Below, piece after piece: positions 8,930 through 57,261 of a stretch of 64,000 nucleotides of DNA (position 1 is the stretch's first letter; the number at the start of each line of letters is the position of its first letter). The position numbers and the translations under genes are program-made. Source of the DNA: Actinomycetota bacterium (GTDB lineage: Bacteria > Actinomycetota > Acidimicrobiia > Spongiisociales > ZC4RG35); NCBI GenBank assembly GCA_052390035.1, contig JBQTHI010000044.1:6797-70796 (forward strand), written 5' to 3'. Below the pieces are notes generated by a model. The model ran no database searches. It worked only from the letters and a program-made list of their open reading frames with translations, and was not told the DNA's origin.

Positions 8930-8933
8930 TCAG

Positions 8934-12584: not shown

Positions 12585-12604
12585 GGTCCGGACAAGGAGA
12601 ACCG

Positions 12605-14382: not shown

Positions 14383-14393
14383 GCTGATCCGTC

Positions 14394-16428: not shown

Positions 16429-16476
16429 GCTAGCCGCTCCCGTTCTAGCCTCCCGTCATGTCGCTCTCTCCCTGCC

Positions 16477-17457: not shown

Positions 17458-17483
17458 CAGCTGTAGTGCCGTTTAACCGGCGG

Positions 17484-17918: not shown

Positions 17919-17947
17919 CTGTCCACGCTAACGCGATTGGAGTCGGA

Positions 17948-24183: not shown

Positions 24184-24242
24184 GAATCGAATCGCCAGAA
24201 GTCATCGGCCAGTAAAACAGGTTTAGTCACTAGGCTTGGAGG

Positions 24243-24854
24243 GTGACCGAAAGCGTGCTCACCGTCGGCACAGAGGCCCTGGAGATGATCATCGGCCTCC
24301 GCGATCAGGAACCCTCGGACGAGGGGGAGATCGGGCTGCTGGTTGAAATAACCGGCCTCCACCACGGCCAATTCAGCTATGACCTGGCTTTTGTACCTGT
24401 TCAGGACGCCGGCCGCGATCACCACATTGAGCGCCACGGAGAGTTGACGGTGATCATTCCGAATGAGAGCGTCGGAAACCTCACCGGTGCCAGCGTCAAA
24501 CTCAACGACGAAGGCCTGACGATCGACAACCCCAACTCGCCGAGCCCCGCCATGGCTGCCCACAAGGGCAGCCTGGAGGGTCCCCTGGCCGACCAGATCA
24601 CCCAGGTTCTCCATGAAGATGTGAACCCCAAGATCGCCATGCACGGCGGTCGGGCGGAGTTGGTTTCGGTGGATGGCACCGTCGCCTATCTGAAGATGGG
24701 CGGTGGCTGCCAGGGATGTGGCATGGCACAGGTAACGCTCAAACAAGGCATCGAGCGGATCCTGATGGAGTCGATTCCCGAAATCACCGAGGTCATCGAT
24801 GTCACCGACCACGCCTCGGGTACAGATCCTTATTACCAGCGATCGAAGAAGTAG
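24243..24854 (+). CDS. nfuA: Fe-S cluster carrier NfuA-like (degenerate A-type carrier domain fused to Nfu domain)
   Basis: The C-terminal Nfu domain has the GGGCQGCGMA CxxC motif. The start is GTG 24243 or, better spaced from the GGAGGG RBS, GTG 24255. Confidence 0.65.
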   Translation: MTESVLTVGTEALEMIIGLRDQEPSDEGEIGLLVEITGLHHGQFSYDLAFVPVQDAGRDHHIERHGELTVIIPNESVGNLTGASVKLNDEGLTIDNPNSPSPAMAAHKGSLEGPLADQITQVLHEDVNPKIAMHGGRAELVSVDGTVAYLKMGGGCQGCGMAQVTLKQGIERILMESIPEITEVIDVTDHASGTDPYYQRSKK

Positions 24855-24897
24855 CGCCGAACGGAGTCCCCGGGGACAGGCGGATAGCCTGATCAGG

Positions 24898-27030
24898 ATG
24901 GAACCTGTCCGCCGATGGCGGCGTCTGAGTCGTATGCGTCGCATGGTGTTGTTGGCCGCCGTCTCTCTCCTGACCCTGGCGGCTATTCCGTTGGCACAGG
25001 CCCAGGTAGCGCAGGCCCAACCTCCGGTTCGGATGGAGGCCAAGGTCGGGTTGGCCGGTTATGTGCAGATACAGCGGCCGGTGGAAGTGGCGGTAACCAT
25101 CGAAGCCGACGTTCTCTTTGCCGGATGGCTCGAGGCCAGGACCGGCGACACGGTGGTCAGGGTGGCGGTCGAAGTTCCCGCCGGGGGAGCGAAGACTTAC
25201 GACCTCCGCCTTCCGCCGCCGGTCGGTTCGGTATCGACCCGACTGCGCCTCTTTGATAGGAACGGCTCGGGTCGAGATGGTTCAGGCCCCCTGGCAACCA
25301 CCAACCTTCAGCTCAGAACCGTCGACGGTGAGACCCTGGTGGCAGTGGTGGGGCGGGACGAGCTCGTCAAGACCATCGACAGCGCCGAGGTGGCAGTCAC
25401 TGGTGACCCAGTCGTGGCCGCCGCCATCGACTTGGCTCGCCTCGAGACTGGAGTGGAGCCCGCCAACTATCTGGTGTTAGATCAGCCAGGTGAACTCCCC
25501 GAACCGGTGGTGTTGTGGCTCGACCGAGGAGGACGACTGGTCATCGATCGCCAAGACTCGGGTTCTTTGGGGCTGGCGTTCGGTCGGGTAATTCCTGATG
25601 GCGAGAGGTCCCTCTTGTCATACGGACAAGGCTGGGTGATTGCCGTCCCCGACATCGGCGCACTTGATGTGGTCGGGTGGTCCCAGGTGCTGGTGCCGAC
25701 TCCGATCCAGCTGGCACCCCGCGATGTCTGGCAAAGCCCTGAGCTCCAATTGATGCAGTCGGCAACGAGCGGCGGCGACCAGCGGGTCCCCTCGTTGCCG
25801 TGGTTGCTCGGTGCTCTGGTTGGCTACGCCATCCTGGTCGGCCCCGTCAACTTCCTGATCTTGCGGCGCCTCGGTCGTCGAGAGCTGGCCTGGGTCACGG
25901 TCCCGGCTCTGTCGCTCTTGGCTGTGGTCGGGTTTTGGCTGGCGGGACGTCAGCGGCTCGAGGAGACGATCATCAATCATGCGAGCCTCGTCATATCCGC
26001 CCCGGACCGGAGCGAAGGTCGGACCGCCCTGGTATTAGCGACCGGCTCCGGGGGCGAACGAACGGTGGCCGTACCCGCTGACTGGGAGGCCTACCCGGCG
26101 TCGGTGACGATCGATGGAGGCATGCCGGTGGCATCGGCGTTGGCTGAGTCCGTTGCTCCGGGCGAATTCCGATTCACGCTTGAACAACTCGGATCGGCCG
26201 GCGTGCAGAGTTGGTGGCAGAGCGCAGCGTTTGACCTTCCTCAAGTCCTGCCCTCCGCCTCGGACAATCGGCTAAAGATCGACGTCAACAACCAAACGCC
26301 CCATGAATTTTGGGCATGGGGACTGGTGGGCCGGGGACGGGTCACGGTCGCCCCCCAGGCCCTGGCGCCCGGTGAGGCGGGTGGCGTGTCGGTGTTACCC
26401 GGTCAAAGTGGCGCCAACGAGTTCGGGTCGGTCGGCGACGCCGTCATCAATAGCCGCAATTTGTGGAACGACCCGTTCATTTGGAACAAACTTGGTGCTC
26501 TCTCCTACGCGGCTTCCTCGCTCCTAGCCCAATACGACAGCTACTTCTTCGGTTACACCGACCAGATGTCGGTTTCCGTGATTGTCGATGGGCGCGAGGT
26601 AAAGGCGCCCGGGTCGACTCTCGTGCTGATACCGGTCGACGCCGGCGCCATCTTCGGCTCCCAGGCAGGCAGCGTCACCGCCCACTTAATCAGCACCGGT
26701 GACGCCAGTTGGGTCGACATCGGACCCGGTTATCTGTCGGTTTCAACCCAGCAGATGACTATCGGTTGGGAGGTGCCCCAGGACATTGCGACCGACCCCA
26801 CCCTGGCCGTGTCAAACATGTTCGGCGAGATCCCGCGAGTGCTCGAGGCTTACAATTGGGACGCCGACGCTTATGAGGAGGTCCTCGGGGGCCAGTCCCT
26901 CGACCTCGGCTTGTACCGAAGCCCAGTCGGCCAGGTGCTGGTACGGGCCAGCGCCGGCGACGGCGACGTTGAGGGCCAGTTCATCGAGCAGGCTATGTCA
27001 CCCTACGGCTTCAGTCTGGTCTGGCCGTGA
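24898..27030 (+). CDS. large exported/membrane protein of unknown function (first gene of ABC-2/MoxR operon)
   Basis: ATG 24898 gives a signal peptide (MEPVRRWRRLSRMRRMVLLAAVSLLTLAAIPLAQA). There are two predicted internal TM helices. The stop overlaps the next start (GTGA). Confidence 0.5.
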   Translation: MEPVRRWRRLSRMRRMVLLAAVSLLTLAAIPLAQAQVAQAQPPVRMEAKVGLAGYVQIQRPVEVAVTIEADVLFAGWLEARTGDTVVRVAVEVPAGGAKTYDLRLPPPVGSVSTRLRLFDRNGSGRDGSGPLATTNLQLRTVDGETLVAVVGRDELVKTIDSAEVAVTGDPVVAAAIDLARLETGVEPANYLVLDQPGELPEPVVLWLDRGGRLVIDRQDSGSLGLAFGRVIPDGERSLLSYGQGWVIAVPDIGALDVVGWSQVLVPTPIQLAPRDVWQSPELQLMQSATSGGDQRVPSLPWLLGALVGYAILVGPVNFLILRRLGRRELAWVTVPALSLLAVVGFWLAGRQRLEETIINHASLVISAPDRSEGRTALVLATGSGGERTVAVPADWEAYPASVTIDGGMPVASALAESVAPGEFRFTLEQLGSAGVQSWWQSAAFDLPQVLPSASDNRLKIDVNNQTPHEFWAWGLVGRGRVTVAPQALAPGEAGGVSVLPGQSGANEFGSVGDAVINSRNLWNDPFIWNKLGALSYAASSLLAQYDSYFFGYTDQMSVSVIVDGREVKAPGSTLVLIPVDAGAIFGSQAGSVTAHLISTGDASWVDIGPGYLSVSTQQMTIGWEVPQDIATDPTLAVSNMFGEIPRVLEAYNWDADAYEEVLGGQSLDLGLYRSPVGQVLVRASAGDGDVEGQFIEQAMSPYGFSLVWP

Positions 27031-27968
27031 GCATCGCCACTCTGCAGGGGGTCGAGAAACGTTATGGGCCGGTCCATGCACTGGCTGGGGTCGATCTGGA
27101 GGTGCCCGAAGGATCGGTCTTTGGGTTGATCGGACCCAATGGAGCAGGCAAGACCACCTCGATGTTGCTGATCAGCACCCTCCTATCTCGGGATGCAGGA
27201 GACATGCAGGTATTGGGGGTCGACCCGCAGATTGACCCCCGCGGAGTGCGCCGCCAACTCGGTTACATGCCCGACTTCTTCGGTTTCTACGACCATCTGA
27301 CGGTGGTCGAATATCTCGACTTCTTCGGCGCGGCCTCCGGGGTGCCGGCCGCCAAACGCCCGGCGGTCATAGCCGACTTGCTCAGTCTTGTCGATCTCGA
27401 CGACCGGGCCGGTGCCGACGTCAACAGTTTGTCCCGAGGAATGAAACAACGCCTGTCACTCGCCCGAGCACTGGTCCACGACCCAGCACTGTTGGTTCTC
27501 GATGAGCCCGCTTCGGGCCTCGATCCCCGCGCCAGGGTCCACCTGCGGGAGTTGATCGCCGAGCTCTCCCGGATAGGAAAAACGGTGGTCATCTCCTCAC
27601 ATATCCTCTCCGAGCTGGAAGGCATCTGCACTCACATGGCGGTGGTCGACCAGGGCAAAGTCAAAGCGCAGGGAAACATCGACGAAATCCGTCGCACGAT
27701 GACAGCCAGCCGTCGGATCTCGGCACGGGTTCCCGACGAGCAGGTCGACGGGACCGCCGAGCTGATCGGGGGTCAGCCGTCAGTGAGCGAGGTCGAGGTG
27801 GAGCGGGGTTTGGTGCGCTTCGTCTTGTCCGGCGACGAGTCCGACTCGGCTCGCCTGCTGGCCGTGGTGGTCGCCGGCGGATGGAGGGTCGCCGATTGGC
27901 GCATGGAGGTAGCCGGTCTCGAGGAGCTCTTTTTGCAAATCACCTCCGAAGAGAGTCCCTCCTCATGA
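27027..27968 (+). CDS. ABC transporter ATP-binding protein
   Basis: Walker A GPNGAGKTT, the signature LSRGMKQRLSLARAL and Walker B LLVLDEP are present. Confidence 0.85.
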   Translation: MSIATLQGVEKRYGPVHALAGVDLEVPEGSVFGLIGPNGAGKTTSMLLISTLLSRDAGDMQVLGVDPQIDPRGVRRQLGYMPDFFGFYDHLTVVEYLDFFGAASGVPAAKRPAVIADLLSLVDLDDRAGADVNSLSRGMKQRLSLARALVHDPALLVLDEPASGLDPRARVHLRELIAELSRIGKTVVISSHILSELEGICTHMAVVDQGKVKAQGNIDEIRRTMTASRRISARVPDEQVDGTAELIGGQPSVSEVEVERGLVRFVLSGDESDSARLLAVVVAGGWRVADWRMEVAGLEELFLQITSEESPSS

Positions 27969-28981
27969 TGAATCCGGTCTTGAGGCGGGAACTACTCGAA
28001 CGATTCCGGACCCGCCGGGCCGCCTGGTTCATGTTCGCTTGGACCCTTGGCATCGGTCTGGTGGGGTACGTCACCTACCTGGTCAGCCAACAGTTTGCCA
28101 ACGGCAACTTTGGGATGGGCCGTCTGATCGCCACCGGGTTCATGGGCCGTTTCTTGTTCCAGGGGATGATGATGCTGATGATGAGCGCCGTGATCATGGT
28201 GGTCCCTGGAGTCACGGCCCTGGCCATCGTTTCGGAAAGAGAAAGACAGACCCTTCCGCTGCTCCAGGTCACTCAGCTCTCCAATTACCAGCTGGTGCTG
28301 GGCAAGCTGAGCTCGTCGATGTCCTATTTCCTGCTGTTGCTTTTGGCGGTCGCCCCGGTGATGGCACTGCCGCTGTTGTTTGGGGGGATGAGCTTGCTTG
28401 ATGTGTTGGCGGCCCTGGCCATCATGGTGGCGACGGCGGTCATGCTCGGGAGCGTGGCCTTGGCGATCTCCTCGCGGGCAAAGTCAAGTCGTGGAGCCGT
28501 AGCCGGGAGTTATGGCTTCGCTTTCATCATCGCCTTCTTCACGATCGCCGTGCTGCTCGCCGAGTTTCTGATCGTGCGGCCGGCTGGCGGGGCGCTGGTG
28601 CCACCCCGAGGCCGCGAGGTGTACAGCTCGTGGCTGAACCCCTACGTCGCCATGGTTGATGCCGTCGAGGCGCCCCTGGCGGTGAGCACTGCGTTTCTTC
28701 CCACCCCTTTTGCCCCGATCGACGCCCTGCTCTATGCCCGCCAGGGAGTATCCGGGGGGTTCGGGTTCGGAGGGTTCTTCGGAGGTGAGATCGGCGGCAA
28801 TTTGATAGTCGATGACTCGGGCCGGCAATTGATCCGCATGCGGCGAGGGCCAGTTTGGCTGCGCACTCTGATCATCTACGCGGCCATCAGTGCGTTGGCA
28901 TTGATGCGCGCCGCTCGGGTGTTGCGGGCGCCGGCTACGGCCGCGTTCCGTCTGCGGAGGAGCCGAAGTGTGGCGGCCTGA
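27965..28981 (+). CDS. ABC-2 family permease (NosY/COG1277-like)
   Basis: The start overlaps the upstream stop (ATGATG). It has 6 TM segments and the SERERQTLPLL motif typical of ABC-2 'multi-copper enzyme maturation' permeases. Confidence 0.7.
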   Translation: MMNPVLRRELLERFRTRRAAWFMFAWTLGIGLVGYVTYLVSQQFANGNFGMGRLIATGFMGRFLFQGMMMLMMSAVIMVVPGVTALAIVSERERQTLPLLQVTQLSNYQLVLGKLSSSMSYFLLLLLAVAPVMALPLLFGGMSLLDVLAALAIMVATAVMLGSVALAISSRAKSSRGAVAGSYGFAFIIAFFTIAVLLAEFLIVRPAGGALVPPRGREVYSSWLNPYVAMVDAVEAPLAVSTAFLPTPFAPIDALLYARQGVSGGFGFGGFFGGEIGGNLIVDDSGRQLIRMRRGPVWLRTLIIYAAISALALMRAARVLRAPATAAFRLRRSRSVAA

Positions 28982-30566
28982 ACCGGGCCTTCCGCCGACC
29001 GTGGCGGATCTGATCCGCGCCGCTCGGGCGCGCATGACCTGGTCTGGCTTGGCTCTTCGAGCCGTCACGTTGGTTGGGGTGGCGGCGGCCCTGGCTGCCG
29101 TCCTGGTAGCGGTTGGCCGTTTGGTGGCCCTGCCGTGGACCGAACCGGTTGCAGCCGGGCTCATTGGGGCCGGGGCGATGGCGGCGGTGCTAACGGGTCT
29201 TTTCCGGCCGGTTTCCCCCCAGGCGGCGGCGCTGGCCGTAGATCGTCGCCTGGGCGGATTTGACCGGATTTCGACGGCGCTCGAGCTGTCGAGCGGCGGT
29301 CCGAGCGGAGATCCCGAGGCTCGCCAGGTGGAGGCCGCCCGGGTGTGGGCGCAGAACCGAAGCGTGGCCTCCCTCGGTCGCCTATTTCCCCGCGGGTGGT
29401 TGCCGCGTCTGTCGGTGGGTGCGGTGGCTGCAACCCTCTTGCTGGCCCTGGTGCCTGCGGCCACCGACGTCTTGCTGGCCCGACATCGCGCCGAGCAACA
29501 GCTGATCGAGGAGGAGATCGAGCGGCTTACCGAGCACGCAGAAGAGGCTCCTCCCGAGGTCGCCGAGATGCTCGAACGACTGATCGAGGAGCTGGCCCGG
29601 GCAGAGAGCCTCGACCAGGCCATCTCCTCGCTGGGCGAGGCACGACAACAACTGGCCGAGCTGGCCGACCCGGCCGAGCTGGCTGCCCGCACCGCCTTGG
29701 CCGGCCTGGAACAGCGCCTCGAACAGAACCCGATCGCCGAGGGCGGCTCGGCCTCCGAACAACTGCGAGAACTCGCCCGACAGCTGAACGCGACCTCCCC
29801 GGAGGCAATGGCGGCCGCCGCCGCCGAATTGGCGGCTCGCGCCGGTGACCTGGCTGGTGTGGACCAGGAGCTATCCGATGCCCTGGCTGTAGCCGCTGCC
29901 GCTCTCGAACAGGCCGCTCTCGATCCTGGCGCGCTTGGAACCGCCGCTGTGGCTTTGGGTGAGGCGGCGTCTCAGCTTGATCGAGCGAACGCCGAGGCGG
30001 CCGAGGCAGCGGCCAGGGCTGACGTGCAGGCTCAGGTGAGAGACGCTCAGGCTCGCCTGGCCCAAGCGCGCGACGCCGGGACGGGACAAGCAACCGGAGA
30101 AGGTCAGGGTCAAGGGCAAGGCCAGGGTCAAGGGCAAGGTCAGGGCCAGGGGCAGGGCCAGGGGCAAGGCCAGGGGCAAGGGACTGGTGCAGGGGGCGGT
30201 GGAGGTGGGCAGGGCGCCGGTGGATCGAGCGGAAGCGGCGGCACCCAGGGTGGGACCGGTTCGGGAAGCGTCGGTCACGGCACCGGTGATCACGATCCGG
30301 TGCTCGATCCAGCTCGCAGTCAGATCTTCGACCCAGTTGAACATGGCCTCGGCGACGAGGTCAGGGTTGACCTCGGCCCGGGCAACACTCCCGGCGAGCC
30401 GACCGGCAGCACCAGCGGGCAGGGGGTCGAAAACTTGCCTCTCACCGGCTACGCCGACCGATTCACCCAATACCGCCAGGCGGCGTTGGATTCGCTCGAT
30501 CGTCTGGTTATCCCCACCGACCTCCAGGATCTTGTCCGCCGATATTTCACCGAGTTGGAGCCCTAG
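28968..30566 (+). CDS. membrane-anchored coiled-coil protein with (GQ)13 / Gly-rich low-complexity region
   Basis: GTG 28968 follows a GGAGG RBS. The protein has N-terminal TM helices, a long Ala/Glu/Leu-rich coiled coil, (GQ)13, a Gly-rich segment and a conserved-looking C-terminal 60 aa. Confidence 0.55.
   Translation: MWRPEPGLPPTVADLIRAARARMTWSGLALRAVTLVGVAAALAAVLVAVGRLVALPWTEPVAAGLIGAGAMAAVLTGLFRPVSPQAAALAVDRRLGGFDRISTALELSSGGPSGDPEARQVEAARVWAQNRSVASLGRLFPRGWLPRLSVGAVAATLLLALVPAATDVLLARHRAEQQLIEEEIERLTEHAEEAPPEVAEMLERLIEELARAESLDQAISSLGEARQQLAELADPAELAARTALAGLEQRLEQNPIAEGGSASEQLRELARQLNATSPEAMAAAAAELAARAGDLAGVDQELSDALAVAAAALEQAALDPGALGTAAVALGEAASQLDRANAEAAEAAARADVQAQVRDAQARLAQARDAGTGQATGEGQGQGQGQGQGQGQGQGQGQGQGQGQGTGAGGGGGGQGAGGSSGSGGTQGGTGSGSVGHGTGDHDPVLDPARSQIFDPVEHGLGDEVRVDLGPGNTPGEPTGSTSGQGVENLPLTGYADRFTQYRQAALDSLDRLVIPTDLQDLVRRYFTELEP
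30102..30179 (+). repeat. in-frame hexanucleotide repeat (GGNCAR)x13 encoding (Gly-Gln)13
   Basis: Read directly: ggtcagggtcaagggcaaggccagggtcaagggcaagg... Confidence 0.85.
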
Positions 30567-46948: not shown

Positions 46949-49681
46949 TTAGGGCCCGGTAAGTGGGTTCATGGCCTCCGGGTCGACGTCGTAGCGGGCG
47001 ATGGCGTCGTCAACTGCTTCGTGCCCAATCCGCCCTTCGCGGACCAGCGCCGCCAATGTCGCCACGATCACATGGCCGGAGTCGGTTTCGAAGAACCGTC
47101 TTAGCCTGGTCCGGCTGTCCGAGCGGCCAAACCCGTCGGTGCCGAGGATGGTAAACGAGCGGGGAATGAATCTTCCGACCTGGTCGGGGACCGCCTTCAT
47201 GAAATCGCTCACTGCGACGATGGGCCCCTCCGTTCCGGCGAGGGCCGAAGTCACGAAAGGGGTGCGGGTCGGCTCGCCGGGATGAAGCCGGTTCCATCGC
47301 TCCACTTCAAGTGCCTCGTTCCTCAGTTTTTGGTAAGAGGTAACCGACCACAGCTCGGCGCCCACCCGGTAATGGTCGGCCAGGTCGACTTGCGCCTTGC
47401 GGGCCGCCAGATTGGCCGTGCCTGAGAAGAGGATGGTGGCCCGTGCAGCGACGCCCGCCGGAGCCGGGCTCCACCGGTAAAGGCCACCGATGATTCCCTC
47501 TGGGGAACCGTCGGGTCGCGCCGGTTGTGGATAGGTCTCGTTGTAGAGGGTGATGTAAAAGAAGCGGTCTTCCGGTTCTGACCCGTACATCCGATAGATG
47601 CCGTGTTCGATGATCGTCCCCACCTCATAAGCGAACGCCGGGTCATAGCTCTCGCAGGCCGGGTTGGTGCTTGCCAGCAGCAAGCTGTGCCCGTCCTGGT
47701 GCTGAAGACCCTCGCCGGCGAGGGTCGTGCGGCCGGCGGTAGCGCCCAACAAGAATCCGCGTGCTCGGGCGTCCCCAGCTCCCCACAGGAGGTCGCCGAT
47801 CCGTTGAAACCCGAACATGGAATAGAGAATGAAGAACGGCACCATCGGGACGCCGCGTGTGGCGTATGAGGTAGCCGCCGCGATCCAGCTTGCCATCGAG
47901 CCGGCCTCGGTTATTCCCTCCTCCAGGATCTGTCCGTCTTGCGCCTCGACATAAGAAAGAAGCAGCTTCGCATCGACCGGCTCGTAAAGTTGGCCCTCGG
48001 AGGCATAGATCTTCAGCTCGCGGAACAGTGCATCCATGCCGAAGGTGCGTGCCTCGTCGGGCACAATTGGGACTACCCGTGGTCCAAAACCCTCGGTGCG
48101 GGCCAGGTTCCGAAGCAGACGAGTGAAGGCGGTGGTGGTAGACGCCTCAGCTTTGCCGGATCCGGCATATATCTCGGCGAATGCTTCCGGCCCAGGCAGG
48201 GTCAACGTCGAACGCACCGTCGTTACTCGGGCGGGAAGGTACCCGTTGAGCACCTTGCGTCGTTCATGCAGATATTGGTGCTCCGGGGAACCTTCCATGG
48301 GACGGAGATATGGGGGGTCGGCGTCGCCTTCCAGCGCCTCGTCGGGGATGTCCTCTTGAAGACTCAGACGATCACGGAGCACCTTGAGTTGGGCATTGGT
48401 GAGTTCTTTGATTTGATGGGTGGCGTTACGTCCCTCGACATCAGGGCCCAGTGTCCATCCCTTTATCGTCTTGGCCAGGATGACGACGGGGGCGCCGGTC
48501 AGTTCTGTTGCGAGTTGGTAAGAGCTGAAGATCTTCTTGTAGTCCAGCCCTCCTCGGCGTAGGGCCCATATCTCGTCATCGGACATGCCCGTCACGAGAG
48601 CAAGGGCCCTCGGGTCCTTGCCAAAAAAACGTTCGCGGACAAAGGCACCGTTCTCGGCCTTGTATCTCTGATATTCACCGTCAAGCGTCTCGTTCATCAC
48701 CTGGACTAGGGCGCCTTCATGATCGGCGGCGAGCAGCGGATCCCAGCCGCTCCCCCAGATGGTCTTGATGACGTGCCATCCGGCTCCCCTGAACACCGAC
48801 TCCAACTCCTGGATGATCTTCCCGTTTCCTCGTACCGGCCCGTCGAGGCGTTGGAGGTTGCAGTTGATCACCCAGATGAGGTTGTCGAGCTTCTCCCTGC
48901 TGGCAAGATGGATCGAGCCAAGGGTCTCCGGCTCGTCCACCTCCCCATCGCCGACAAAACACCAAATCTTTGACTCGGAGGTGTCATCGAGCCCGCGATG
49001 GTGGAGGTAACGGTTGAAACGGGCGTGATAGATCGAGTTGATGGGCCCGAGCCCCATCGAAACGGTCGGGAATTCCCAGAACTCCGGCATGAGCCGCGGG
49101 TGGGGATATGACGAGAGGCCGTGTCCTCCGATCTCGAATCGAAAGTGATCGAGGTGTTCTTCATCCAGCCTGCCTTCGAGAAACGCCCTCGCATAAATCC
49201 CCGGAGCGGCGTGGCCCTGGAAATATATGTGGTCACCGGGACTCCCATTGGCCTTGCCCCGGAAGAAATGGTTGAAACCGACCTCGTACAGGGTTGCCGT
49301 CGAGGCGAAGGTGGACAGGTGTCCGCCGATTCCCTTCTCCCGGTGATTGGCCTTGATCACCATGACCGCCGCGTTCCATCGAATGAAGCGGCGGATTCTC
49401 CGCTCCAGATGCTCGTCTCCGGGGAAAGGGGGCTCGTCTTCCGGCGGGATGGTGTTGACGTACGGGGTGGTGGTGGTAGGCGGTACGCCGATGTTGGCGA
49501 GATGGGCGCGTTCTAGTAGGCGGGCGAGCAGAAAACGCGCCCGGACCGGTCCGTGCAAGGAAACGACCTGATCGAGGGAGTCGAGCCATTCCTGGGTCTC
49601 GGTCGGGTCGGCGTCGTAGAGCTGGTCGATGAAGTCGTCGCCGAGCGTTCTGGCGACCTGACCCGGATCAGCTTCTCTCAC
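46949..49681 (-). CDS. aceE: pyruvate dehydrogenase E1 component (homodimeric AceE type)
   Basis: 910 aa. The AceE N-terminus LDSLDQVV...ARFLLARLLERA, the TPP-binding region and the transketolase-like domains are present. Confidence 0.9.
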   Translation of the reverse strand: MREADPGQVARTLGDDFIDQLYDADPTETQEWLDSLDQVVSLHGPVRARFLLARLLERAHLANIGVPPTTTTPYVNTIPPEDEPPFPGDEHLERRIRRFIRWNAAVMVIKANHREKGIGGHLSTFASTATLYEVGFNHFFRGKANGSPGDHIYFQGHAAPGIYARAFLEGRLDEEHLDHFRFEIGGHGLSSYPHPRLMPEFWEFPTVSMGLGPINSIYHARFNRYLHHRGLDDTSESKIWCFVGDGEVDEPETLGSIHLASREKLDNLIWVINCNLQRLDGPVRGNGKIIQELESVFRGAGWHVIKTIWGSGWDPLLAADHEGALVQVMNETLDGEYQRYKAENGAFVRERFFGKDPRALALVTGMSDDEIWALRRGGLDYKKIFSSYQLATELTGAPVVILAKTIKGWTLGPDVEGRNATHQIKELTNAQLKVLRDRLSLQEDIPDEALEGDADPPYLRPMEGSPEHQYLHERRKVLNGYLPARVTTVRSTLTLPGPEAFAEIYAGSGKAEASTTTAFTRLLRNLARTEGFGPRVVPIVPDEARTFGMDALFRELKIYASEGQLYEPVDAKLLLSYVEAQDGQILEEGITEAGSMASWIAAATSYATRGVPMVPFFILYSMFGFQRIGDLLWGAGDARARGFLLGATAGRTTLAGEGLQHQDGHSLLLASTNPACESYDPAFAYEVGTIIEHGIYRMYGSEPEDRFFYITLYNETYPQPARPDGSPEGIIGGLYRWSPAPAGVAARATILFSGTANLAARKAQVDLADHYRVGAELWSVTSYQKLRNEALEVERWNRLHPGEPTRTPFVTSALAGTEGPIVAVSDFMKAVPDQVGRFIPRSFTILGTDGFGRSDSRTRLRRFFETDSGHVIVATLAALVREGRIGHEAVDDAIARYDVDPEAMNPLTGP

Positions 49682-49780
49682 ATTCCCAAACCTACTGCAC
49701 CAAAGGGGCTATCCGACCGGTGGACAGGATCGGTTCTCGGCACCTGCCGATTGTGCCGGTGCCGAGCTAGCTTCCTCCTG

Positions 49781-50269
49781 GTGACCTCGGCCTACGAGTT
49801 CTCCGCCATTGACATCGATGGGAAAGAGCGTCAACTCTCCGAATTCGAGGGACGTCCGCTCCTGATCGTCAACGTCGCCTCACACTGCGGCTTCACCCCC
49901 CAGTACCGGGGGCTCGAAGAGATGTGGCGCCACTTCGGACCCGACCGCCTGGTGGTCCTGGGATTTCCATCGGACCAGTTCAACCAGGAGCCCGGTGACG
50001 AGGAGGAGATTAAGAACTTCTGCTCGTTGAAATACGACGTCACCTTTCCGCTGTTCGCCAAGATCGATGTGAACGGGGATGCCGCTCACCCGCTCTGGGA
50101 ATGGCTCCGGTCGGAACGCCCCGGGATCTTCAGCGGCAACATCAGGTGGAACTTCACCAAGTTCCTCATCGACCAAGACGGTCAAGTGGTGCATCGTTAC
50201 CGGCCGACCGACACCCCTGAGAGGATCAGCCGAGATGTGGCGGTGATGATCGAGTCAAACGGCGGCTGA
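49781..50269 (+). CDS. glutathione peroxidase (Cys-type)
   Basis: The start is GTG 49781. The motifs NVASHCGFTPQY, FPSDQF and WNFTKFL are present. There is no in-frame TGA. Confidence 0.8.
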   Translation: MTSAYEFSAIDIDGKERQLSEFEGRPLLIVNVASHCGFTPQYRGLEEMWRHFGPDRLVVLGFPSDQFNQEPGDEEEIKNFCSLKYDVTFPLFAKIDVNGDAAHPLWEWLRSERPGIFSGNIRWNFTKFLIDQDGQVVHRYRPTDTPERISRDVAVMIESNGG

Positions 50270-51139
50270 GCCTGTTGGGGGGGCCGACAACCACCTGCTG
50301 TAGGCGGCCTCCACATCGGCCGGGGCCTCGAGCTGTGGACAGTGTCCGACTCCCGGCATTATCACCAACTCCCAGTCGGGACGAAGAGATGAGAGCCACT
50401 CCACTCCCGAGCCGGCGATAACCCGGTCCTCGCTCCCCTGAATTATCAGGGTCGGAGCCTTGATCTTGCCAACCATTGCTTCATAACGGGATCGATGGAC
50501 CAACCACGAACCGCTGGAGCGGCCCGACTTGACCATGGCGTCGATCGCCCAAGGTTGGTGGCGCCGAGTCGTGGTGAGGTCCAATGAAGGCCCGAAGACC
50601 TCCCGCGGCACCCGATCTGGTCGATGGCACACGACGGCGAGGGTGTCGAGAAGCTGCCGTTGGGGGGTGGTGCTCCGCCAGTATTTCCTGACGAACGCCG
50701 GCCCGAGGACCGGTAGGCCTTGGATCATCAAACGTCTTGCGGTCATCCGATCGATCCGGGGATCGTCAATTCGAGGTGGGCTGGCCGGGCCGAGCAGCAC
50801 CAGGCGCTCGACCAGATGGGGCTGATCGGCAGCAATCAACATCGCCACAAGCGCTCCGAGGGAGTTTCCGAATAGGACCGCCGGTGCTCCCAGAGCTTCG
50901 ATCAGCTCCGACATGACCCGGGCGTGGGAAGCGACGGTAAAAGAGCCGTGCGGGGGGGTGTATCCAAATCCGGGCAGGTCAGGGGCGTACAGATGTCCAT
51001 GGTGGGCAAGTCCCGAAACCGGCATCCAGTTGAGATGAGCCCCCCCCAAGCCGTGGAGGGCGATGATGGGCTCGCCGGTTCCCCCATAGTCGTGGACGTA
51101 AACGGGTCCGGTGGGCACCGAGACGAACCTGCCTGGCAT
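50255..51139 (-). CDS. alpha/beta hydrolase
   Basis: The nucleophile elbow is GNSLG and the oxyanion region is HGLGG. The start is trimmed to MPGRFVSV. Confidence 0.65.
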   Translation of the reverse strand: MPGRFVSVPTGPVYVHDYGGTGEPIIALHGLGGAHLNWMPVSGLAHHGHLYAPDLPGFGYTPPHGSFTVASHARVMSELIEALGAPAVLFGNSLGALVAMLIAADQPHLVERLVLLGPASPPRIDDPRIDRMTARRLMIQGLPVLGPAFVRKYWRSTTPQRQLLDTLAVVCHRPDRVPREVFGPSLDLTTTRRHQPWAIDAMVKSGRSSGSWLVHRSRYEAMVGKIKAPTLIIQGSEDRVIAGSGVEWLSSLRPDWELVIMPGVGHCPQLEAPADVEAAYSRWLSAPPTGSAAV

Positions 51140-51187
51140 ACTCACCAAGTTAGCCCCTACAGAGGTATTCGCCCTTAGGATCACCTT

Positions 51188-52546
51188 GTGCGAGTTCTCC
51201 TGGCTTCGACCTACGAGCTTGGCCATCAGCCGCTACATGTGGCTTCGCCGGCGGCTCGGCTGCTGGCCGAGGGACACGAGGTGCGCTGTGTCGATCTGGC
51301 AGTCGAACCCTGGCCGGATGACCAGCTCAATTGGGCCGAAGGGGTCGCTTTCTCGGTGCCGATGCACACCGCCATGCGCCTGGCCGTCCTTTCCGCCCGA
51401 CGGATCCGAGATGCCCACTCCGAGCTGCCGATTGCCTTCTACGGGCTGTACGCCGCGGTGGGGGCAGACCGTTCCGTCGCGGAGTTGGCCGACCAGCGGA
51501 TCGTCGGTGAATACGAAGACGAACTGGCGCGCTGGTGCCTCGATGGAAATGGCACCACCAGGATCAAGGTCGACCTCGGTCGCAAACAATTCGCCCCGCC
51601 CGCCCGCCACCTCCTGCCACCACTGAACAGATACGCCAAGCTCCGCTACCTCGGGGAGGAGCGCCTCGCCGGTTACGTCGAAGCCAGCCATGGCTGCCGC
51701 CACCGCTGCCGGCACTGTCCAATTCCGGCGGTCTACGACGGCCGGTTTCGAGTTACCGGGCTCGACACGGTACTCGCCGACATCGGTCAACTGGTGGGGA
51801 TGGGAGCCCGGCATATCAGCTTCGGGGATCCCGACTTTCTCAACGCACCCCGCTACGCCCTCGATGTGTTGACCGCGTCCAATCGGTCATACCCCGATCT
51901 GACCTTCGATCTAACGGTCAAGGTCGAACACCTCCTCGAACATGCCGATCTGCTCGACACGATTGCGGGCTGCAACGTGGTTTTCCTCGTCTCGGCGTTC
52001 GAGACGACCAACGACCACGTACTGGGCTTGCTCGACAAGGGCCACACGGCTTCGGACATGTCGAATGCGGCCAGGCTCGTCCGCGCCCATGGCTTGGGCC
52101 TACGTCCCTCGTGGCTGCCGTTCACCCCTTGGACCCGTTCCGGCGATCTGGCCGAGATCTTTGCCTTTCTCCGCGACCACGACCTGTTGAAGACCGTCGA
52201 CCCGGTTCAGCTGAGCATCAGGTTGCTGGTGCCCGACGGTTCGCTCCTGCTCGACCTTCCTGACATGGGGGCCTATCTGAAAGAGTACGACCCCGAAGGC
52301 CTGACCTACCGGTGGCGGGCCGCCGATCCGGCCGTCGACCTGCTCCAGAGGAAACTGGCGAAACTTGCCGAGGACGGTGCCAGTGGCGCCTCGGTGCTGC
52401 AGGCAATGTGGGATCTGGTGATGGGGGCGGAGTCGATGCCCGTGTGGGTGGATGGAGACGGTCCAGGCCTCACCGAATCCTGGTTTTGTTGCGCCGAACC
52501 AACCGGTCGCCAGCTCAGCGCCGTAGGAGACCGCCGGAGCGCCTGA
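51188..52546 (+). CDS. CCAEP-tail radical SAM protein with N-terminal B12-binding-like domain
   Basis: The start is GTG. The N-terminus is Rossmann/B12-binding-like. The radical SAM motif CRHRCRHC (CxxxCxxC) is present. The C-terminus ends ...ESWFCCAEPTGRQ. Confidence 0.75.
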   Translation: MRVLLASTYELGHQPLHVASPAARLLAEGHEVRCVDLAVEPWPDDQLNWAEGVAFSVPMHTAMRLAVLSARRIRDAHSELPIAFYGLYAAVGADRSVAELADQRIVGEYEDELARWCLDGNGTTRIKVDLGRKQFAPPARHLLPPLNRYAKLRYLGEERLAGYVEASHGCRHRCRHCPIPAVYDGRFRVTGLDTVLADIGQLVGMGARHISFGDPDFLNAPRYALDVLTASNRSYPDLTFDLTVKVEHLLEHADLLDTIAGCNVVFLVSAFETTNDHVLGLLDKGHTASDMSNAARLVRAHGLGLRPSWLPFTPWTRSGDLAEIFAFLRDHDLLKTVDPVQLSIRLLVPDGSLLLDLPDMGAYLKEYDPEGLTYRWRAADPAVDLLQRKLAKLAEDGASGASVLQAMWDLVMGAESMPVWVDGDGPGLTESWFCCAEPTGRQLSAVGDRRSA

Positions 52547-52611
52547 CAGAGCACGGAGTGCCCATCGGCGGGGTGGCCTATTAAGTCATCGAAAACGAAC
52601 AAGGAGAAATC

Positions 52612-53550
52612 GTGAACGTTCTCGAAGCCCGAGGTCTCGAGAAGCGCTTCGGGAAGATCAAGGCGGTCAACGGGGTCAGCTTCTCGATCGCCCCAGGCGA
52701 AACCTACGGCTTGTTGGGCCCGAACGGAGCCGGCAAGACCACGTCGATCTCGATCGTCGCCGGACTACTCGAAGCCGACGCCGGCGAGGTGCTGGTTCAG
52801 GGTGAGGTGATGACCCCCCGGGCCGTGGCGCCCAAGGCCAAGCTGGGCCTGGTACCCCAAGACCTGGCTATCTACCCCGATCTAACCGCCCGGGAGAACC
52901 TGTTGTTCTTTGGGCGGCTCTACGGAATGCCGAGTCAGCGCCTGAAGGCGCGGGTAGGGGAGGTCCTTCAAGTGGTCGGTCTTGGCGAAAGGGCCGACGA
53001 TCCCACCAAAGAGTTCTCCGGGGGGATGAAGCGGCGGCTGAACATCGGGATAGGGCTTCTTCACTCACCCGATCTGCTGATTCTCGACGAGCCCACCGTC
53101 GGAGTCGACCCACAATCCCGCAACACCATCCTCGAATCCGTCGAGCAGCTCTCCTCGGCAGGTCTGGCGGTTCTCTACACCACTCACTACATGGAAGAGG
53201 CCGAACGCCTCTGCGATCGGGTGGGAATCATCGATCAGGGGGAGATCAAGGCCGAAGGCACCCGCCGAGACCTCATCCAACTCGTCGGCGAGAAGGACCG
53301 GGTAAAGATCACAGGCAGCGGATCCCTGCATGAAATCGCCGGGAAACTGGCCGGCCTGACCGGCGTAGAGGAGGCAGTTGTAAATGACGCCGGAATCGAC
53401 CTGCTGGTCGAGGATGCCGGGGTGCTCCTGGCCAGCCTGCTCGAGGCAGCCTCCGCCGGTGGCATGAGGGTTGCCGGGGTCGAGGTAGTGCAGCCCAACC
53501 TGGAAGCGGTCTTCCTCCATCTCACCGGGAAGGCGTTGAGAGACGTATGA
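52612..53550 (+). CDS. ABC transporter ATP-binding protein (ABC-2/DrrA-like)
   Basis: The RBS AAGGAGA precedes the start. Motifs are GPNGAGKTT, FSGGMKRRLNIGIGL and LLILDEPTVG. Confidence 0.85.
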   Translation: MNVLEARGLEKRFGKIKAVNGVSFSIAPGETYGLLGPNGAGKTTSISIVAGLLEADAGEVLVQGEVMTPRAVAPKAKLGLVPQDLAIYPDLTARENLLFFGRLYGMPSQRLKARVGEVLQVVGLGERADDPTKEFSGGMKRRLNIGIGLLHSPDLLILDEPTVGVDPQSRNTILESVEQLSSAGLAVLYTTHYMEEAERLCDRVGIIDQGEIKAEGTRRDLIQLVGEKDRVKITGSGSLHEIAGKLAGLTGVEEAVVNDAGIDLLVEDAGVLLASLLEAASAGGMRVAGVEVVQPNLEAVFLHLTGKALRDV

Positions 53551-54710
53551 GGAACCTGTTCGCCATCGCCGGCAAAGATCTCAAGTTGAGGATCCGGGAT
53601 CGCTCCCTGTTGATTGTTGCAGTATTGGCTCCGCTGGTCCTGGCGTTCATATTCAACGCCGTCTTTGGGTCGGCGCTACAAGGTGGCGTCAGCTTTGAGC
53701 CCAAGTTCGGGATCGTCCAAAACGCCTCGCCTCGGACCTCCGCCATCCTCCAACAGATCTCCACAGGGATTGGCGGGGCATGGGAGGTGTTCGGTTCACG
53801 CCAAGAGGCCGAAGAGGCAATCGACGCAGGCCAAATCGACGCCGTCTTTGTCGTGGGCGAAGGCCTCGATGGAGCGATCGACCAGGGTCGGGGAGGAACG
53901 CTCGAAGTGATCGGCAACGTGGATTCGGAAACCGCCACCGAGGTGGCGACCTCGATCGCCAAAGGTTACGGGCAAAGCGTTGGGGAGATTCAACTGTCGA
54001 TTGCCGCCGCCCTGACCGCGGGCGGCCATCCGGCGCAGGTCATCCCCGCCGCCACCGATGAAGGAGTCACGTCGACCGCTTTGGTTGGAGAGGTGAAAGC
54101 CGAGGTCCGCCAGCTCGACGCCACCACATCGACGGTGGCGGCGATGGCTGTTTTCTTCCTCATGTTCACCTCCCAAGTCGGATTCCTGAGCCTGCTCGAG
54201 GAACGCCGCGACGGCACCCTCGCCCGAATCCTGTCTTCCCCAACGCGACCTTGGCAGGTTGTGGCGGCCAAGAGCCTGGTGTCGGTCCTGCTGGGCCTGG
54301 CTTCGCTCTTCGTAGTGATGGTGGTCGGGCGGTTCTTGATGGGTGCGCAGTGGGGCAACCCGGCGGGCGTCGCCCTGCTGGTGGTGGCTGCGGTGGCGGC
54401 AGCCTCGGGTATCTCTGCACTGACCACGGGATTGGCCTCGACTCCGGAAGCAGCCGGAAACATCCAGGGCATCGTTGGCACCGTCCTTGGACTTCTGGGC
54501 GGGGTCTTCTTTCCGATAGGTGAAGAGGGCGGGCTTCTGTCCAGAATCAGCGGCCTTACCCCTCATCACTGGTTCATGAGAGGGCTGGCCGACCTTGCCG
54601 ATGGTCAGGGAGCCTCGGCGGCGGCTCCGGCCGCTTTGCCCCTTTTGGTCATCGCGGCAATAACCGCATTGGCGGCGGCCCTGTTTATCAGAAGGCAGGT
54701 CGCTCGATGA
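53547..54710 (+). CDS. ABC-2 family permease
   Basis: It has an N-terminal TM, a large extracytoplasmic loop and a C-terminal 5-TM bundle. The 4-nt overlaps on both sides suggest coupling. Confidence 0.7.
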   Translation: MRNLFAIAGKDLKLRIRDRSLLIVAVLAPLVLAFIFNAVFGSALQGGVSFEPKFGIVQNASPRTSAILQQISTGIGGAWEVFGSRQEAEEAIDAGQIDAVFVVGEGLDGAIDQGRGGTLEVIGNVDSETATEVATSIAKGYGQSVGEIQLSIAAALTAGGHPAQVIPAATDEGVTSTALVGEVKAEVRQLDATTSTVAAMAVFFLMFTSQVGFLSLLEERRDGTLARILSSPTRPWQVVAAKSLVSVLLGLASLFVVMVVGRFLMGAQWGNPAGVALLVVAAVAAASGISALTTGLASTPEAAGNIQGIVGTVLGLLGGVFFPIGEEGGLLSRISGLTPHHWFMRGLADLADGQGASAAAPAALPLLVIAAITALAAALFIRRQVAR

Positions 54711-55870
54711 AGGTGCTCGTCATCGCCGGGACCAATCTCAAACGCCTGTTTCGGGACCGGTCGTCGATCTTCTTCATCTTCGTGTTTCCGCTCGCCCTGG
54801 TCTTGCTCATCGGGCTTCAGTTCGGAGGTGGCTTCCGGCCTCAGATAGGCGTGTTGGAGGCGGCTCCCGGTAGCGGGTCGGCCCGGGTGGTCGACTCGTT
54901 AAGAGCGGAGGACGGCCTCGAAGTCGTCACCTTCCCCGACGAGGAAGCCCAGATCTCGGCGGTCGAGACCGGTACGATCGAGGCGGCGGTCATCCTCCCG
55001 TCCGGCTTCGACCAGGCGATCGCCTCCGGTGAGAAGGTTCAGGTGGGTTTTGTCGCCCACCAGAGCGGTGTTGGGCCAAGCCTTCGACCGGTTGTTGCCG
55101 AGGCGGTCCGGACGGGCCTTCTACCCGTCACCGCCGCCCGTTTCGTTGCCGACCAGGGCCTCGCTGGGTTCGACGCCGCTCTGGCCACCGCCAGCCGGAT
55201 CGAGCCGAGCCTCGAGCGGATCGAAGTGACCACCCGCACAATCGGCGAATCGGTGTTTCCTCCCACCCTGGGACGCTATGACTTGGGCGCCTCCAGTCAA
55301 CTGATCCTGTTCATGTTCGTCACCGCCCTTTCAGGCGGGGCGGTCCTGATTCAGACTCGCCAACTTGGGTTGTCGAGGCGAATGTTGTCGACCCCGACGC
55401 CGGTCGGGACGGTGCTGGGTGGAGAAGCTTTGGGCCGTTTCGCCGTAGTGGTGGTGCAAGGTTTGTACATCATGATCGGAACCTGGCTGCTCTTCGGGGT
55501 TAACTGGGGAAGCCTCCCCGGGGCGCTTGGGTTGATCTCGGTCTTCGCAGTGGTCGGAGCGGGGGCGGCGATGCTGATCGGGACGCTATTTCGTAACGCC
55601 GAGCAGGCGGGAGGGGTAGCGGTGATGGTAGGTCTCGGTCTTGCCGCCCTCGGCGGATGCATGTTCCCCCTCCAGCTGTTCCCGCCGGCGATGAAGCGCA
55701 TCGCCCATTTCACTCCCCACGCGTGGGCCCTTGACGGGTTCACCGAGCTGGTTCAGCGAGGTGGCGGGCTGTTCGACATTCTCCCCCAATTGGGCGTGCT
55801 GGCAGGGTTTGCCATGACACTTCTCGCCCTCGCTTCGTGGCGGCTGCGGGTGGCGATCACGACATCGTGA
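54707..55870 (+). CDS. ABC-2 family permease (second subunit)
   Basis: It is paralogous in layout to the preceding permease. Confidence 0.7.
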   Translation: MKVLVIAGTNLKRLFRDRSSIFFIFVFPLALVLLIGLQFGGGFRPQIGVLEAAPGSGSARVVDSLRAEDGLEVVTFPDEEAQISAVETGTIEAAVILPSGFDQAIASGEKVQVGFVAHQSGVGPSLRPVVAEAVRTGLLPVTAARFVADQGLAGFDAALATASRIEPSLERIEVTTRTIGESVFPPTLGRYDLGASSQLILFMFVTALSGGAVLIQTRQLGLSRRMLSTPTPVGTVLGGEALGRFAVVVVQGLYIMIGTWLLFGVNWGSLPGALGLISVFAVVGAGAAMLIGTLFRNAEQAGGVAVMVGLGLAALGGCMFPLQLFPPAMKRIAHFTPHAWALDGFTELVQRGGGLFDILPQLGVLAGFAMTLLALASWRLRVAITTS

Positions 55871-55936: not shown

Positions 55937-56362
55937 ATGCGGAGGATCGTGTTGTTCTTGTTGGCGGCCTCATTGGTGATGGCGGCAAACCCGGCGCTGG
56001 CCGGCGGGAGGCCGCTTTCGACCAGTCTGACCGGAGCGACCGAAGTGCCCGGGCCGGGGGACGCAGACGGATCGGGTGAAGCCGACCTTTGGCTGAACCA
56101 GGGTCTGGAGGAGATCTGCTTCAACGTTCAGGTCAGAAACATCGCCGCCGCTACCGCCGCCCACATTCACCGGGGCGGAGTCGGAGTGGCCGGTCCGGTT
56201 GTGGTGGGATTGACCATGATCGATGGCGACACCTTCGGCGGCTGTGTAACCGTCGACCCGGTGCTGATCAAGGAGATCCGCCAACATCCGGATCGTTTCT
56301 ACGTCAACGTCCACAATGCCGCCTTCCCGGGAGGAGCTGTTAGAGGCCAACTCTCCAAGTAG
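55937..56362 (+). CDS. secreted CHRD-domain protein
   Basis: The RBS AAGGGAGG and a signal peptide are present. CHRD motifs are TGATEVPGPGD, AAHIHRGG, FYVNVHN and FPGGAVRGQL. Confidence 0.65.
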   Translation: MRRIVLFLLAASLVMAANPALAGGRPLSTSLTGATEVPGPGDADGSGEADLWLNQGLEEICFNVQVRNIAAATAAHIHRGGVGVAGPVVVGLTMIDGDTFGGCVTVDPVLIKEIRQHPDRFYVNVHNAAFPGGAVRGQLSK

Positions 56363-56385: not shown

Positions 56386-56736
56386 CTACTCGACGTAAAC
56401 GGTGCCCCGCTTGGTCGTTACCTTTCCCCGGCCAAGCGGGAACACCCGGGTTAGCGCCTTATACGAGAAGCCAAGACCAGGGATCTTGGCGAAGATCCCT
56501 TGCGGCCCGCGAACCATGCGACCGGTGCTGACGTCGTACTTCGATTGATGCCACGGACAGACGAGACAACCGTCTGCGTCGATCGTACCGGCCGCCAAGT
56601 CGGCGTATAGGTGGCGGCATCGTCTGGTCACGGCAAACAGCTCACCTCGGGAGTTGCCTACCGCGTACCGATCGGCACCGGTCACAGTCCCCGGCGGCAA
56701 TTCGGAAACCGGACACACCTTGATCGCCTCTGTCAT
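56386..56736 (-). CDS. Rieske [2Fe-2S] domain protein
   Basis: The motifs CRHLYADL...CPWH (CxH...CxxH) are present. Confidence 0.7.
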   Translation of the reverse strand: MTEAIKVCPVSELPPGTVTGADRYAVGNSRGELFAVTRRCRHLYADLAAGTIDADGCLVCPWHQSKYDVSTGRMVRGPQGIFAKIPGLGFSYKALTRVFPLGRGKVTTKRGTVYVE

Positions 56737-56868
56737 GGCCCGACACTACACCCCGCTCTTTCAGAACCGGAGCCACGGGCTACCGTGCAAACGAGAGCGT
56801 GATATCGGTTGGGCACCGGCCGTCGGGCGATGCCACAATTCGCCAGATGATGAACTCTCGGAGCCGTG

Positions 56869-57261
56869 ATGACCGTTGACGCCGCGAGCCTGCAGGTGGT
56901 GCCCGTGCTCGCCGGGTTGGACGATGACACGACCAGTTATCTGGTTGGGCACATGCAGGAGGTGACCGTTCCGGTCGGTGGTCACCTCGTCAAGGCCGGT
57001 GATTTTGCCTATCGGTTTTTTGCCATTCTCGAGGGAAGCGCGGTGGTCGAGCGCGATGGCTCGTCAGTGGCGACGCTCGAAACGGGCGACGTCTTTGGGG
57101 AGATGGCCCTGCTCGACGACATTCGTCGCAACGCCGACGTGGTCGCCAGCTCGTGGATGCGGGTAGCCGCTTTGATGTCGTGGGACTTTCGCGACGCTAT
57201 GGACCGGTTTGCAGAGTTCCGTCGGCGAATCGACGCCCTGGTGGCTGAGCGGACCCGTTAA
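56869..57261 (+). CDS. stand-alone cyclic-nucleotide-binding (cNMP) domain protein
   Basis: The motifs GDVFGEMALLD...RNADVVA are present. ATG 56869 follows GGAG. Confidence 0.6.
   Translation: MTVDAASLQVVPVLAGLDDDTTSYLVGHMQEVTVPVGGHLVKAGDFAYRFFAILEGSAVVERDGSSVATLETGDVFGEMALLDDIRRNADVVASSWMRVAALMSWDFRDAMDRFAEFRRRIDALVAERTR

Follow-up and report, generated by a model that had tools for sequence, protein, structure and literature searches.

Which genes work with the radical S-adenosylmethionine (SAM) enzyme encoded at positions 51188–52546 of this 64,000-nucleotide stretch of an Actinomycetota genome (the window; contig JBQTHI010000044.1), and what reaction might it catalyse? A first-pass annotation of 51188–55870 had described a CCAEP-tail, B12-binding-type radical SAM enzyme with a dedicated exporter of the type 2 ATP-binding cassette (ABC-2) class. 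That observation was confirmed in part, and its interpretation was partly supported. The gene encodes an ordinary Cys-form protein of a family that is named but uncharacterized. Its nearest characterized relative, judged by sequence, is ArsL, and the partner conserved across phyla is an ATP-grasp ligase together with an NfuA-like gene, not the ABC exporter. Our preferred reading, to which we assign a rough probability of 0.45, is that the enzyme is an ArsL-like 3-amino-3-carboxypropyl (ACP) transferase, a full-length paralogue of ArsL, which would make a heteroatom-bearing amino acid that the ligase then couples. The features on which this reading draws are as follows.

51188–52546, + strand: CCAEP-tail radical SAM protein, Cys form of NF040546; 452 residues, GTG start; NF040546 match, ArsL model second, PF04055; AlphaFold model with a predicted local distance difference test (pLDDT) score of 90.9

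51695–51718, + strand: [4Fe–4S]/SAM motif CxxxCxxC, read from the sequence as C170-R-H-R-C174-R-H-C177 (residues 170–177)

52481–52504, + strand: tail motif W-F-C434-C435-A-E-P-T (residues 432–439); the position of C435 is a selenocysteine (Sec, encoded by TGA) in many orthologues

22960–24183, − strand: ATP-grasp enzyme of the L-amino-acid-ligase type, 407 residues, with ATP-grasp_4, LAL_C2 and ATPgrasp_N domains; unlinked from the radical SAM gene in this genome, 27 kb away

24243–24854, + strand: NfuA-like Fe–S carrier with a NifU domain, divergent from the ATP-grasp gene; PF01106; 106 bits with the NfuA model TIGR03341, below its cut-off

The open reading frame (ORF) at 51188–52546 and its C-R-H-R-C-R-H-C cluster motif are real and positioned as first reported. 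With NF040546, the NCBIfam model for CUAEP/CCAEP-tail radical SAM (seleno)proteins, the protein scored 505.1 bits (E = 1.7e-151, model positions 1–466 of 468). The curated cut-off of 500 bits is barely exceeded, but given this E value the match is no chance event, and the family assignment holds. Within the family nothing sets the protein apart: it passes the cut-off, carries the motif and has orthologues with Sec at the second Cys, and it is a Cys form with a marginal score. The runner-up was the ArsL model NF040542 (267.5 bits against a cut-off of 450, model positions 1–415 of 423), whereas all NCBIfam models of B12-type radical SAM enzymes gave 34 bits or less. PF04055, which had been proposed as a check, was the only Pfam model above threshold (41.3 bits); the B12-binding domain PF02310 reached 19 bits (E = 1.3e-3), under its gathering score of 32.1. 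The AlphaFold model was built with 61 homologues as input and has a predicted template-modelling (pTM) score of 0.91. Its top fold matches in the PDB were AprD4, OxsB, TsrM, MgmA and TokK (TM 0.6–0.67), and CysS was also matched. A PDB sequence search gave one weak match (9ccb, 1e-5), and searching the PDB copies by sequence and by fold revealed no structure from the ArsL family. Because PF02310 is below threshold while the modelled fold matches B12-type enzymes, the label 'B12-binding-type', and with it the B12-binding-like N-terminus, appears valid for the predicted fold and not for the sequence. The family is large: it comprises 345 clusters at 50% identity (E ≤ 1e-30), and over 570 species-level genomes from Actinomycetota and Chloroflexota encode a member. 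NF040546 has been listed as uncharacterized, and CU motifs were taken to suggest heavy-metal ligands (Haft, 2022).

The tail region of the protein reads ...LTESWFCCAEPTGRQLSAVGDRRSA. The Cys pair 434–435 (nucleotides 52487–52492) is followed by 17 more residues, so its earlier placement at the extreme C-terminus was wrong. C170, C174, C177 and the tail pair are the sole invariant Cys residues among 61 homologues, and five His residues (H13, H17, H60, H176 and H286) are invariant in the family across the same set. The sequence LTE-x-WFCCAEPT is conserved among 120 close homologues, with 16 sequences ending at ...WFC; conservation of the tail in orthologues, on which the first annotation had staked its assignment, is thereby confirmed. 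At the DNA level, 27 of 81 orthologous loci have an in-frame TGA in place of the second Cys codon. After the TGA the frame runs on through [AS]EP[T/A/S], mostly as AEPT..Q and as AEPS in two, and in four Sec-form genes from three lineages a hairpin resembling a selenocysteine insertion sequence (SECIS) lies 15–17 nt past the UGA, with compensatory stem changes. The suggestion that the tail Cys aligns with TGA-encoded Sec was thus borne out, and Sec and Cys interchange at the second tail position. The window's Cys-form gene lacks the hairpin of the Sec-form genes. Among cluster representatives at 50% identity, the readable tails comprised 44 CCAEP, 8 CCAAP or similar and 38 truncated at Sec; selenoproteins make up about 40% of the interpretable tails in the family. 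The conserved flanks LTExWF..AEPT..Q are modelled at pLDDT 72–80, which suggests a defined, docked position for the tail.

ArsL cleaves the Cγ–S bond of SAM and transfers the resulting ACP radical to arsenite, which is held by the three Cys residues of an RCCLKC tail; of the enzymes that make ACP radicals from SAM according to the cited papers, ArsL and Dph2, only ArsL has the canonical CxxxCxxC motif (10.1101/2024.02.01.577332; 10.64898/2026.04.29.721666). When aligned with three Firmicute plasmid proteins that bear an RCCLKC tail, the window protein is collinear end to end at 30–33% identity, and the CC of WFCCAEP falls on the CC of RCCLKC. By this alignment the two enzymes are homologous throughout, sharing architecture, length, the CxHxCxxC motif and a C-terminal vicinal CC. 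They differ in the tail itself, which in ArsL is a terminal RCCLKC with three thiols and in the CUAEP/CCAEP family is WFC[C/U]AEPT with two thiols, preceded by a variable linker of 30–50 residues. A further likeness lies in the gene context, as an ATP-grasp gene stands beside the ars genes in all three Firmicute ArsL loci inspected.

Gene contexts were compared by tblastn and ORF clustering in 80 species-level genome loci, fetched from more than 570 that matched. Among 12 Chloroflexota loci, 11 have an ATP-grasp gene (~410 residues) immediately upstream of the radical SAM gene and in the same orientation; so do 14 of 15 Thermoleophilia loci and some from Microthrixaceae and Acidimicrobiaceae. 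Divergent from the ATP-grasp gene runs a NifU-domain gene, within 3 kb of the radical SAM gene (12/12 Chloroflexota and 11/12 Thermoleophilia loci). The downstream flank consists of LipB, LipA and pyruvate dehydrogenase E1, E2 and E3 in Chloroflexota, and of a convergent SaoD/DsrE-family gene in Thermoleophilia; because the outer flanks differ between the phyla, the trio itself looks like the retained unit. In one NCBI genome (GCA_004366215.1) the ligase and the radical SAM enzyme are naturally fused (P0346, 850 residues), with the NifU gene divergent upstream. The association of the two enzymes is thus conserved as adjacency and, in this instance, as fusion.

The window's ATP-grasp enzyme is 53% identical to the one directly upstream of the radical SAM gene in a Chloroflexota locus (L010). 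It matched PF13535, PF18603 and PF18130 with 93, 58 and 46 bits, respectively, and its best PDB match was the L-amino acid ligase BL00235 (3vot, 5e-31), followed by BacD (about 2e-12). The ATP-grasp_4 and LAL_C2 domains are shared with the L-amino acid ligases BL00235, BacD and DdaF, but the protein scores under every NCBIfam equivalog cut-off, and the ATP-grasp partners form a clade of their own that is syntenic with the radical SAM gene. In bacilysin and dapdiamide biosynthesis, L-amino acid ligases join an unusual to a proteinogenic amino acid. Both conserved partners lie in the same window at 22960–24854, outside the neighbourhood to which the first-pass annotation had confined itself. The radical SAM and ATP-grasp genes are likewise split on one 76-kb contig of a related genome (L089/L091); evidence for their co-occurrence in the split state is at the contig level, from the window and this genome.

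Two further arrangements were observed among these loci. A Solirubrobacterales contig (L075) carries two Sec-form radical SAM genes (3857–5227 and 9858–11228), inverted and ~4.6 kb apart; the second has the ATP-grasp and NifU genes adjacent, and the upstream side of the first is lost at the contig end. In Chloroflexota (L010, L018, L039, L046, L049, L068 and L073; ~8700–18600) the ATP-grasp and radical SAM genes lead a same-strand run of LipB, LipA, E1, E2 and E3, and the relocated radical SAM gene in Acidimicrobiia again adjoins E1 (AceE; 46949–49681 in the window). The recurrent adjacency to E1 could reflect a functional tie to lipoate and pyruvate dehydrogenase or an ancestral remnant.

In the proposed mechanism, a [4Fe–4S] cluster on C170, C174 and C177 would reductively cleave SAM at the Cγ–S bond, as in ArsL, to give an ACP radical. 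This radical would attack a soft heteroatom (X) held covalently by the docked tail dithiol C434–C435, or by a thiol–selenol in other lineages, and a tail Cys or Sec would depart as a radical. The product would be a 2-amino-4-(X)-butanoate amino acid, which the ATP-grasp ligase (22960–24183) would join to a second amino acid or an amine, while the NfuA-like protein (24243–24854) may supply or repair the Fe–S cluster. In the window's Acidimicrobiia clade the radical SAM gene would have moved away from the ligase and now lead an ABC-2 transporter operon; the transporter may export the product but would lie outside the conserved system. The points of this scheme that we infer are the regiochemistry of SAM cleavage, the identity of X, the substrate of the ligase and the export step. 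No homologues of ArsM, ArsN1, ArsR, ACR3, ArsC, ArsD, ArsI or MIP were detected (E ≤ 1e-5) in the fetched CUAEP/CCAEP-family loci or in the 64-kb window, and an arsenic gene context was rejected. Since the neighbours are, moreover, housekeeping genes, arsenic is an unlikely identity for X, and sulfur or selenium seems more likely.

Several points weigh against the ArsL-like reading. The tail has two Cys residues here and three in ArsL, with AEPT replacing the region of the third. The five invariant His residues are specific to the family and have no counterpart in ArsL, which may point to a different substrate site. In the window's clade the ligase gene stands apart from the radical SAM gene, and the Thermomicrobium roseum radical SAM gene (protein WP_012643191) has no adjacent ATP-grasp gene. 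The ATP-grasp enzyme of the Firmicute ArsL cluster shares only 27% identity with that of the window and does not rank as its nearest relative among plasmid hits; the pairings of ArsL and of the CUAEP enzyme with ATP-grasp ligases may accordingly be convergent. A search of the literature library for a pairing of ArsL with ATP-grasp enzymes found none, and one for characterization of NF040546 returned only Haft's note, with no biochemistry for any member. The regiochemistry of SAM cleavage, finally, is not readable from a sequence.

A broader proposal is more doubtful, namely that an ArsL-like radical SAM enzyme with a Cys–Cys/Cys–Sec tail and an L-amino-acid ligase, with the NfuA-like carrier, make up a widespread two-enzyme pathway in which radical ACP transfer from SAM leads to a heteroatom amino acid or dipeptide, whose new bond might be C–S, C–Se or C–metalloid. 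If true, it would be a second and far commoner case of the non-canonical radical SAM chemistry of ArsL, with selenocysteine directly involved in carbon–heteroatom bond formation. The CUAEP/CCAEP family is the closest large relative of ArsL and is embedded among genes of core metabolism in lineages abundant in soil and sediment. Because the CC/CU tail aligns with the ArsL Cys residues and the family travels with a ligase, to which it is sometimes fused, a specific hypothesis for the reaction can be put forward, along with candidate substrates and the smallest gene set for reconstitution.

The exporter genes that the first-pass annotation had emphasized are the following.

52612–53550, + strand: ABC transporter ATPase (DrrA-like), a clade-specific neighbour; PF00005; 278 bits with TIGR01188 against a cut-off of 312

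53547–54710, + strand: ABC-2 permease 1, 387 residues, no Cys; PF12698 and PF01061

54707–55870, + strand: ABC-2 permease 2, 387 residues, one Cys; PF12698 and PF01061

The ATPase and the two permeases are linked through 4-nt overlaps, as had been described. The strong ribosome-binding site ahead of them was also found (AAGGAG, 7 nt ahead of the GTG), although the gap from the radical SAM gene measured 65 nt and not 66. Gene order in the window is AceE (−), alpha/beta hydrolase (−), radical SAM (+), ABC ATPase and two permeases (+), PlsB (−) and Dtd (+), and this order is confined to a subset of Acidimicrobiia-like genomes. Synteny of the ABC-2 genes was counted in the 65 loci with enough flank. 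They lie downstream of the radical SAM gene in 19, as the first gene in 9 and farther off in 10, and are absent in 46. All 19 loci that bear them are Acidimicrobiia-like or unclassified; none was found downstream in the 12 Chloroflexota or 16 Thermoleophilia loci. The ABC-2 exporter is therefore a clade-local operon partner at most, its role as a dedicated, syntenic partner is not borne out (46/65 loci without it, 0/28 in Chloroflexota and Thermoleophilia), and for annotation the adjacent transporter should not count as a defining component.

Three other explanations were weighed against the ArsL-like reading. One, which we consider improbable, retains the earlier interpretation: the radical SAM enzyme would make a modified small product or peptide for export by the dedicated three-gene ABC-2 system, and the CC tail would act as a redox shuttle like that of thioredoxin reductase. 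The layout in the window fits, with its short gap, its ribosome-binding site and, in a promoter/terminator scan, no terminator-like site between the radical SAM and ABC ATPase genes. Within the clade the link can be tight: where the ABC ATPase comes first downstream (nine loci) the spacing is 9–126 nt in most, and in L089 the radical SAM stop and the ABC start overlap by 4 nt. The window's clade may thus have a local operon and possibly export of the product. Relatives, too, have transporter genes close by: one of the major facilitator superfamily adjoins the T. roseum homologue, and the ArsL cluster of Alicyclobacillus holds another. Several findings argue against dedication. Besides the 46 that lack the exporter, which include all 28 from Chloroflexota and Thermoleophilia, genes intervene between the radical SAM and ABC-2 genes in ten, one such gene in each of L020 and L034 being on the opposite strand. 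Seven genomes keep AceE, the radical SAM gene and PlsB and/or Dtd without ABC-2 genes (L005, L007, L008, L012, L022, L047 and L081, the last a Sec-form locus), and ABC-2 systems are common here, a second one lying at 27027–28981 in the window. The permeases have zero and one Cys. A maturase of ribosomally synthesized and post-translationally modified peptides with its own exporter is likewise at odds with the findings, as the radical SAM protein has no SPASM, RRE or other extra domain, the 65-nt gap leaves no space for a precursor ORF and the exporter is missing from 46 of 65 loci. As for the tail, thioredoxin reductases of this type carry the Cys–Sec/Cys pair in their flexible last four residues (GCUG-COOH), whereas here 17 residues follow the CC, the flanks are conserved and the region is modelled at pLDDT 72–80. 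Because the CC matches in position the CC that binds arsenite in ArsL, and because the motif does not end the protein, electron shuttling to the active site is less well supported than substrate binding by the tail, and the earlier proposal does not stand as worded.

The other two explanations concern the chemistry. The protein might belong to the B12-binding-domain class and work through a canonical 5'-deoxyadenosyl radical, as a methyltransferase or dehydratase-like enzyme would, with the CC/CU pair donating a hydrogen atom or an electron instead of carrying the substrate. Its Rossmann-like N-terminal domain and radical SAM barrel are shared with AprD4, OxsB, TsrM and TokK, the fold matches extend to MgmA and CysS, weak matches to PF02310 and to B12 radical SAM NCBIfam models exist, and Sec/Cys interchange is typical of redox-active sites. 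Identity to these enzymes is, however, 12–17%, PF02310 stays under its gathering score and the protein shows no sign of cobalamin use; AprD4, the best structural match, is not known to use cobalamin. ArsL is by far the closest characterized homologue (267 bits against at most 34 for any B12 radical SAM model), and its reported in vitro activity came without mention of cobalamin (10.1101/2024.02.01.577332). We regard this alternative as unlikely. Very unlikely, in our view, is a special case of the ArsL-like model in which the tail binds As(III), Sb(III), Hg(II) or similar and a carbon–metal(loid) bond is made for detoxification or antibiotic synthesis. It draws on the ArsL precedent (10.1101/2024.02.01.577332; 10.64898/2026.04.29.721666), on the argument that CU motifs mark heavy-metal ligands (Haft, 2022) and on one family member with a C-terminal MerB alkylmercury-lyase domain (P0270, JGI sample 3300047160; PF03243, 54.7 bits), which has a second MerB gene 3.7 kb downstream. 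A SaoD/DsrE-family gene (NF040913, 199 bits against a cut-off of 152) also lies directly downstream of the radical SAM gene in 8 of 19 Thermoleophilia loci. The CU dipeptide, this neighbour and the MerB fusion recall the selenocysteine-assisted organometallic (SAO) system of Haft, but the other SAO components are absent and the neighbour falls in NF040913, a DsrE branch that occurs outside SAO loci. Only one sequence, from one 8.3-kb contig, shows the MerB fusion, the fetched family loci contain no MerB homologue and, as in the window, none of the eight arsenic-related homologues sought above, and the neighbours are the housekeeping genes AceE, LipA/LipB, PlsB and Dtd.

The SaoD/DsrE-family protein has 121 residues and a CxxC motif and is encoded convergently (L016, 2545–2910, with equivalents in L017, L021, L025, L028, L048 and L057). 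In Chloroflexota, DUF169 occupies a comparable neighbouring position.

The second ABC-2 system of the window belongs to a same-strand run at 24243–30566, which is headed by the NfuA-like gene and continues with a 743-residue protein (no Pfam match), an ABC ATPase (27027–27968), an ABC-2 permease (27881–28981) and a 532-residue protein (no Pfam match). In the related genome L091, NifU is followed by the same run. As the NfuA-headed run carries ABC-2 genes, both halves of the split radical SAM/ligase module adjoin ABC-2 systems in the window's clade.

Upstream of the radical SAM gene, three features were recorded.

50255–51226, − strand: alpha/beta hydrolase, divergent from the radical SAM gene; PF12697 and PF00561; found in 18 loci, all Acidimicrobiia-like or unclassified

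46949–49681, − strand: pyruvate dehydrogenase E1 (AceE), a recurrent neighbour of the radical SAM gene in Acidimicrobiia and Chloroflexota

49553–50269 (ORF): Cys-type glutathione peroxidase (NVASHCGFT), 0.9 kb upstream of the radical SAM gene, with the opposite-strand alpha/beta hydrolase between them

The position given earlier for the glutathione peroxidase was confirmed. A link to the radical SAM gene was rejected, as no homologue lies near that gene in the 80 loci. Scans with Rfam (the window and four loci) and for tRNA genes (the window) gave no match and no riboswitch clue. Small unannotated genes found between the radical SAM and ABC genes in some loci (c62 and c95) encode membrane or low-complexity proteins without Pfam matches; they are absent from the window. 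A gene for a multi-pass membrane protein of ~190 residues, also without a Pfam match, lies between the radical SAM and ABC ATPase genes in L011, L014, L045, L061, L067 and L071 and not in the window. Between the ABC genes and PlsB, the window carries a CHRD-domain protein (55937–56362), a Rieske ferredoxin (56386–56736, − strand) and an unannotated ORF of 131 residues (56866–57261); as the CHRD gene was otherwise found only in L055, the segment 55937–57261 looks like a local insertion. In L007, L047 and L062 a sulfur-carrier activation pair, made up of ThiF/MoeB–rhodanese and JAB-domain genes, lies just past AceE on its upstream side. In its longest ORF the alpha/beta hydrolase overlaps the start of the radical SAM gene by 39 nt (51188–51226), and the tblastn match to the hydrolase in L002 likewise enters the radical SAM start; either the overlap or a very tight promoter region between the divergent genes may therefore be conserved.

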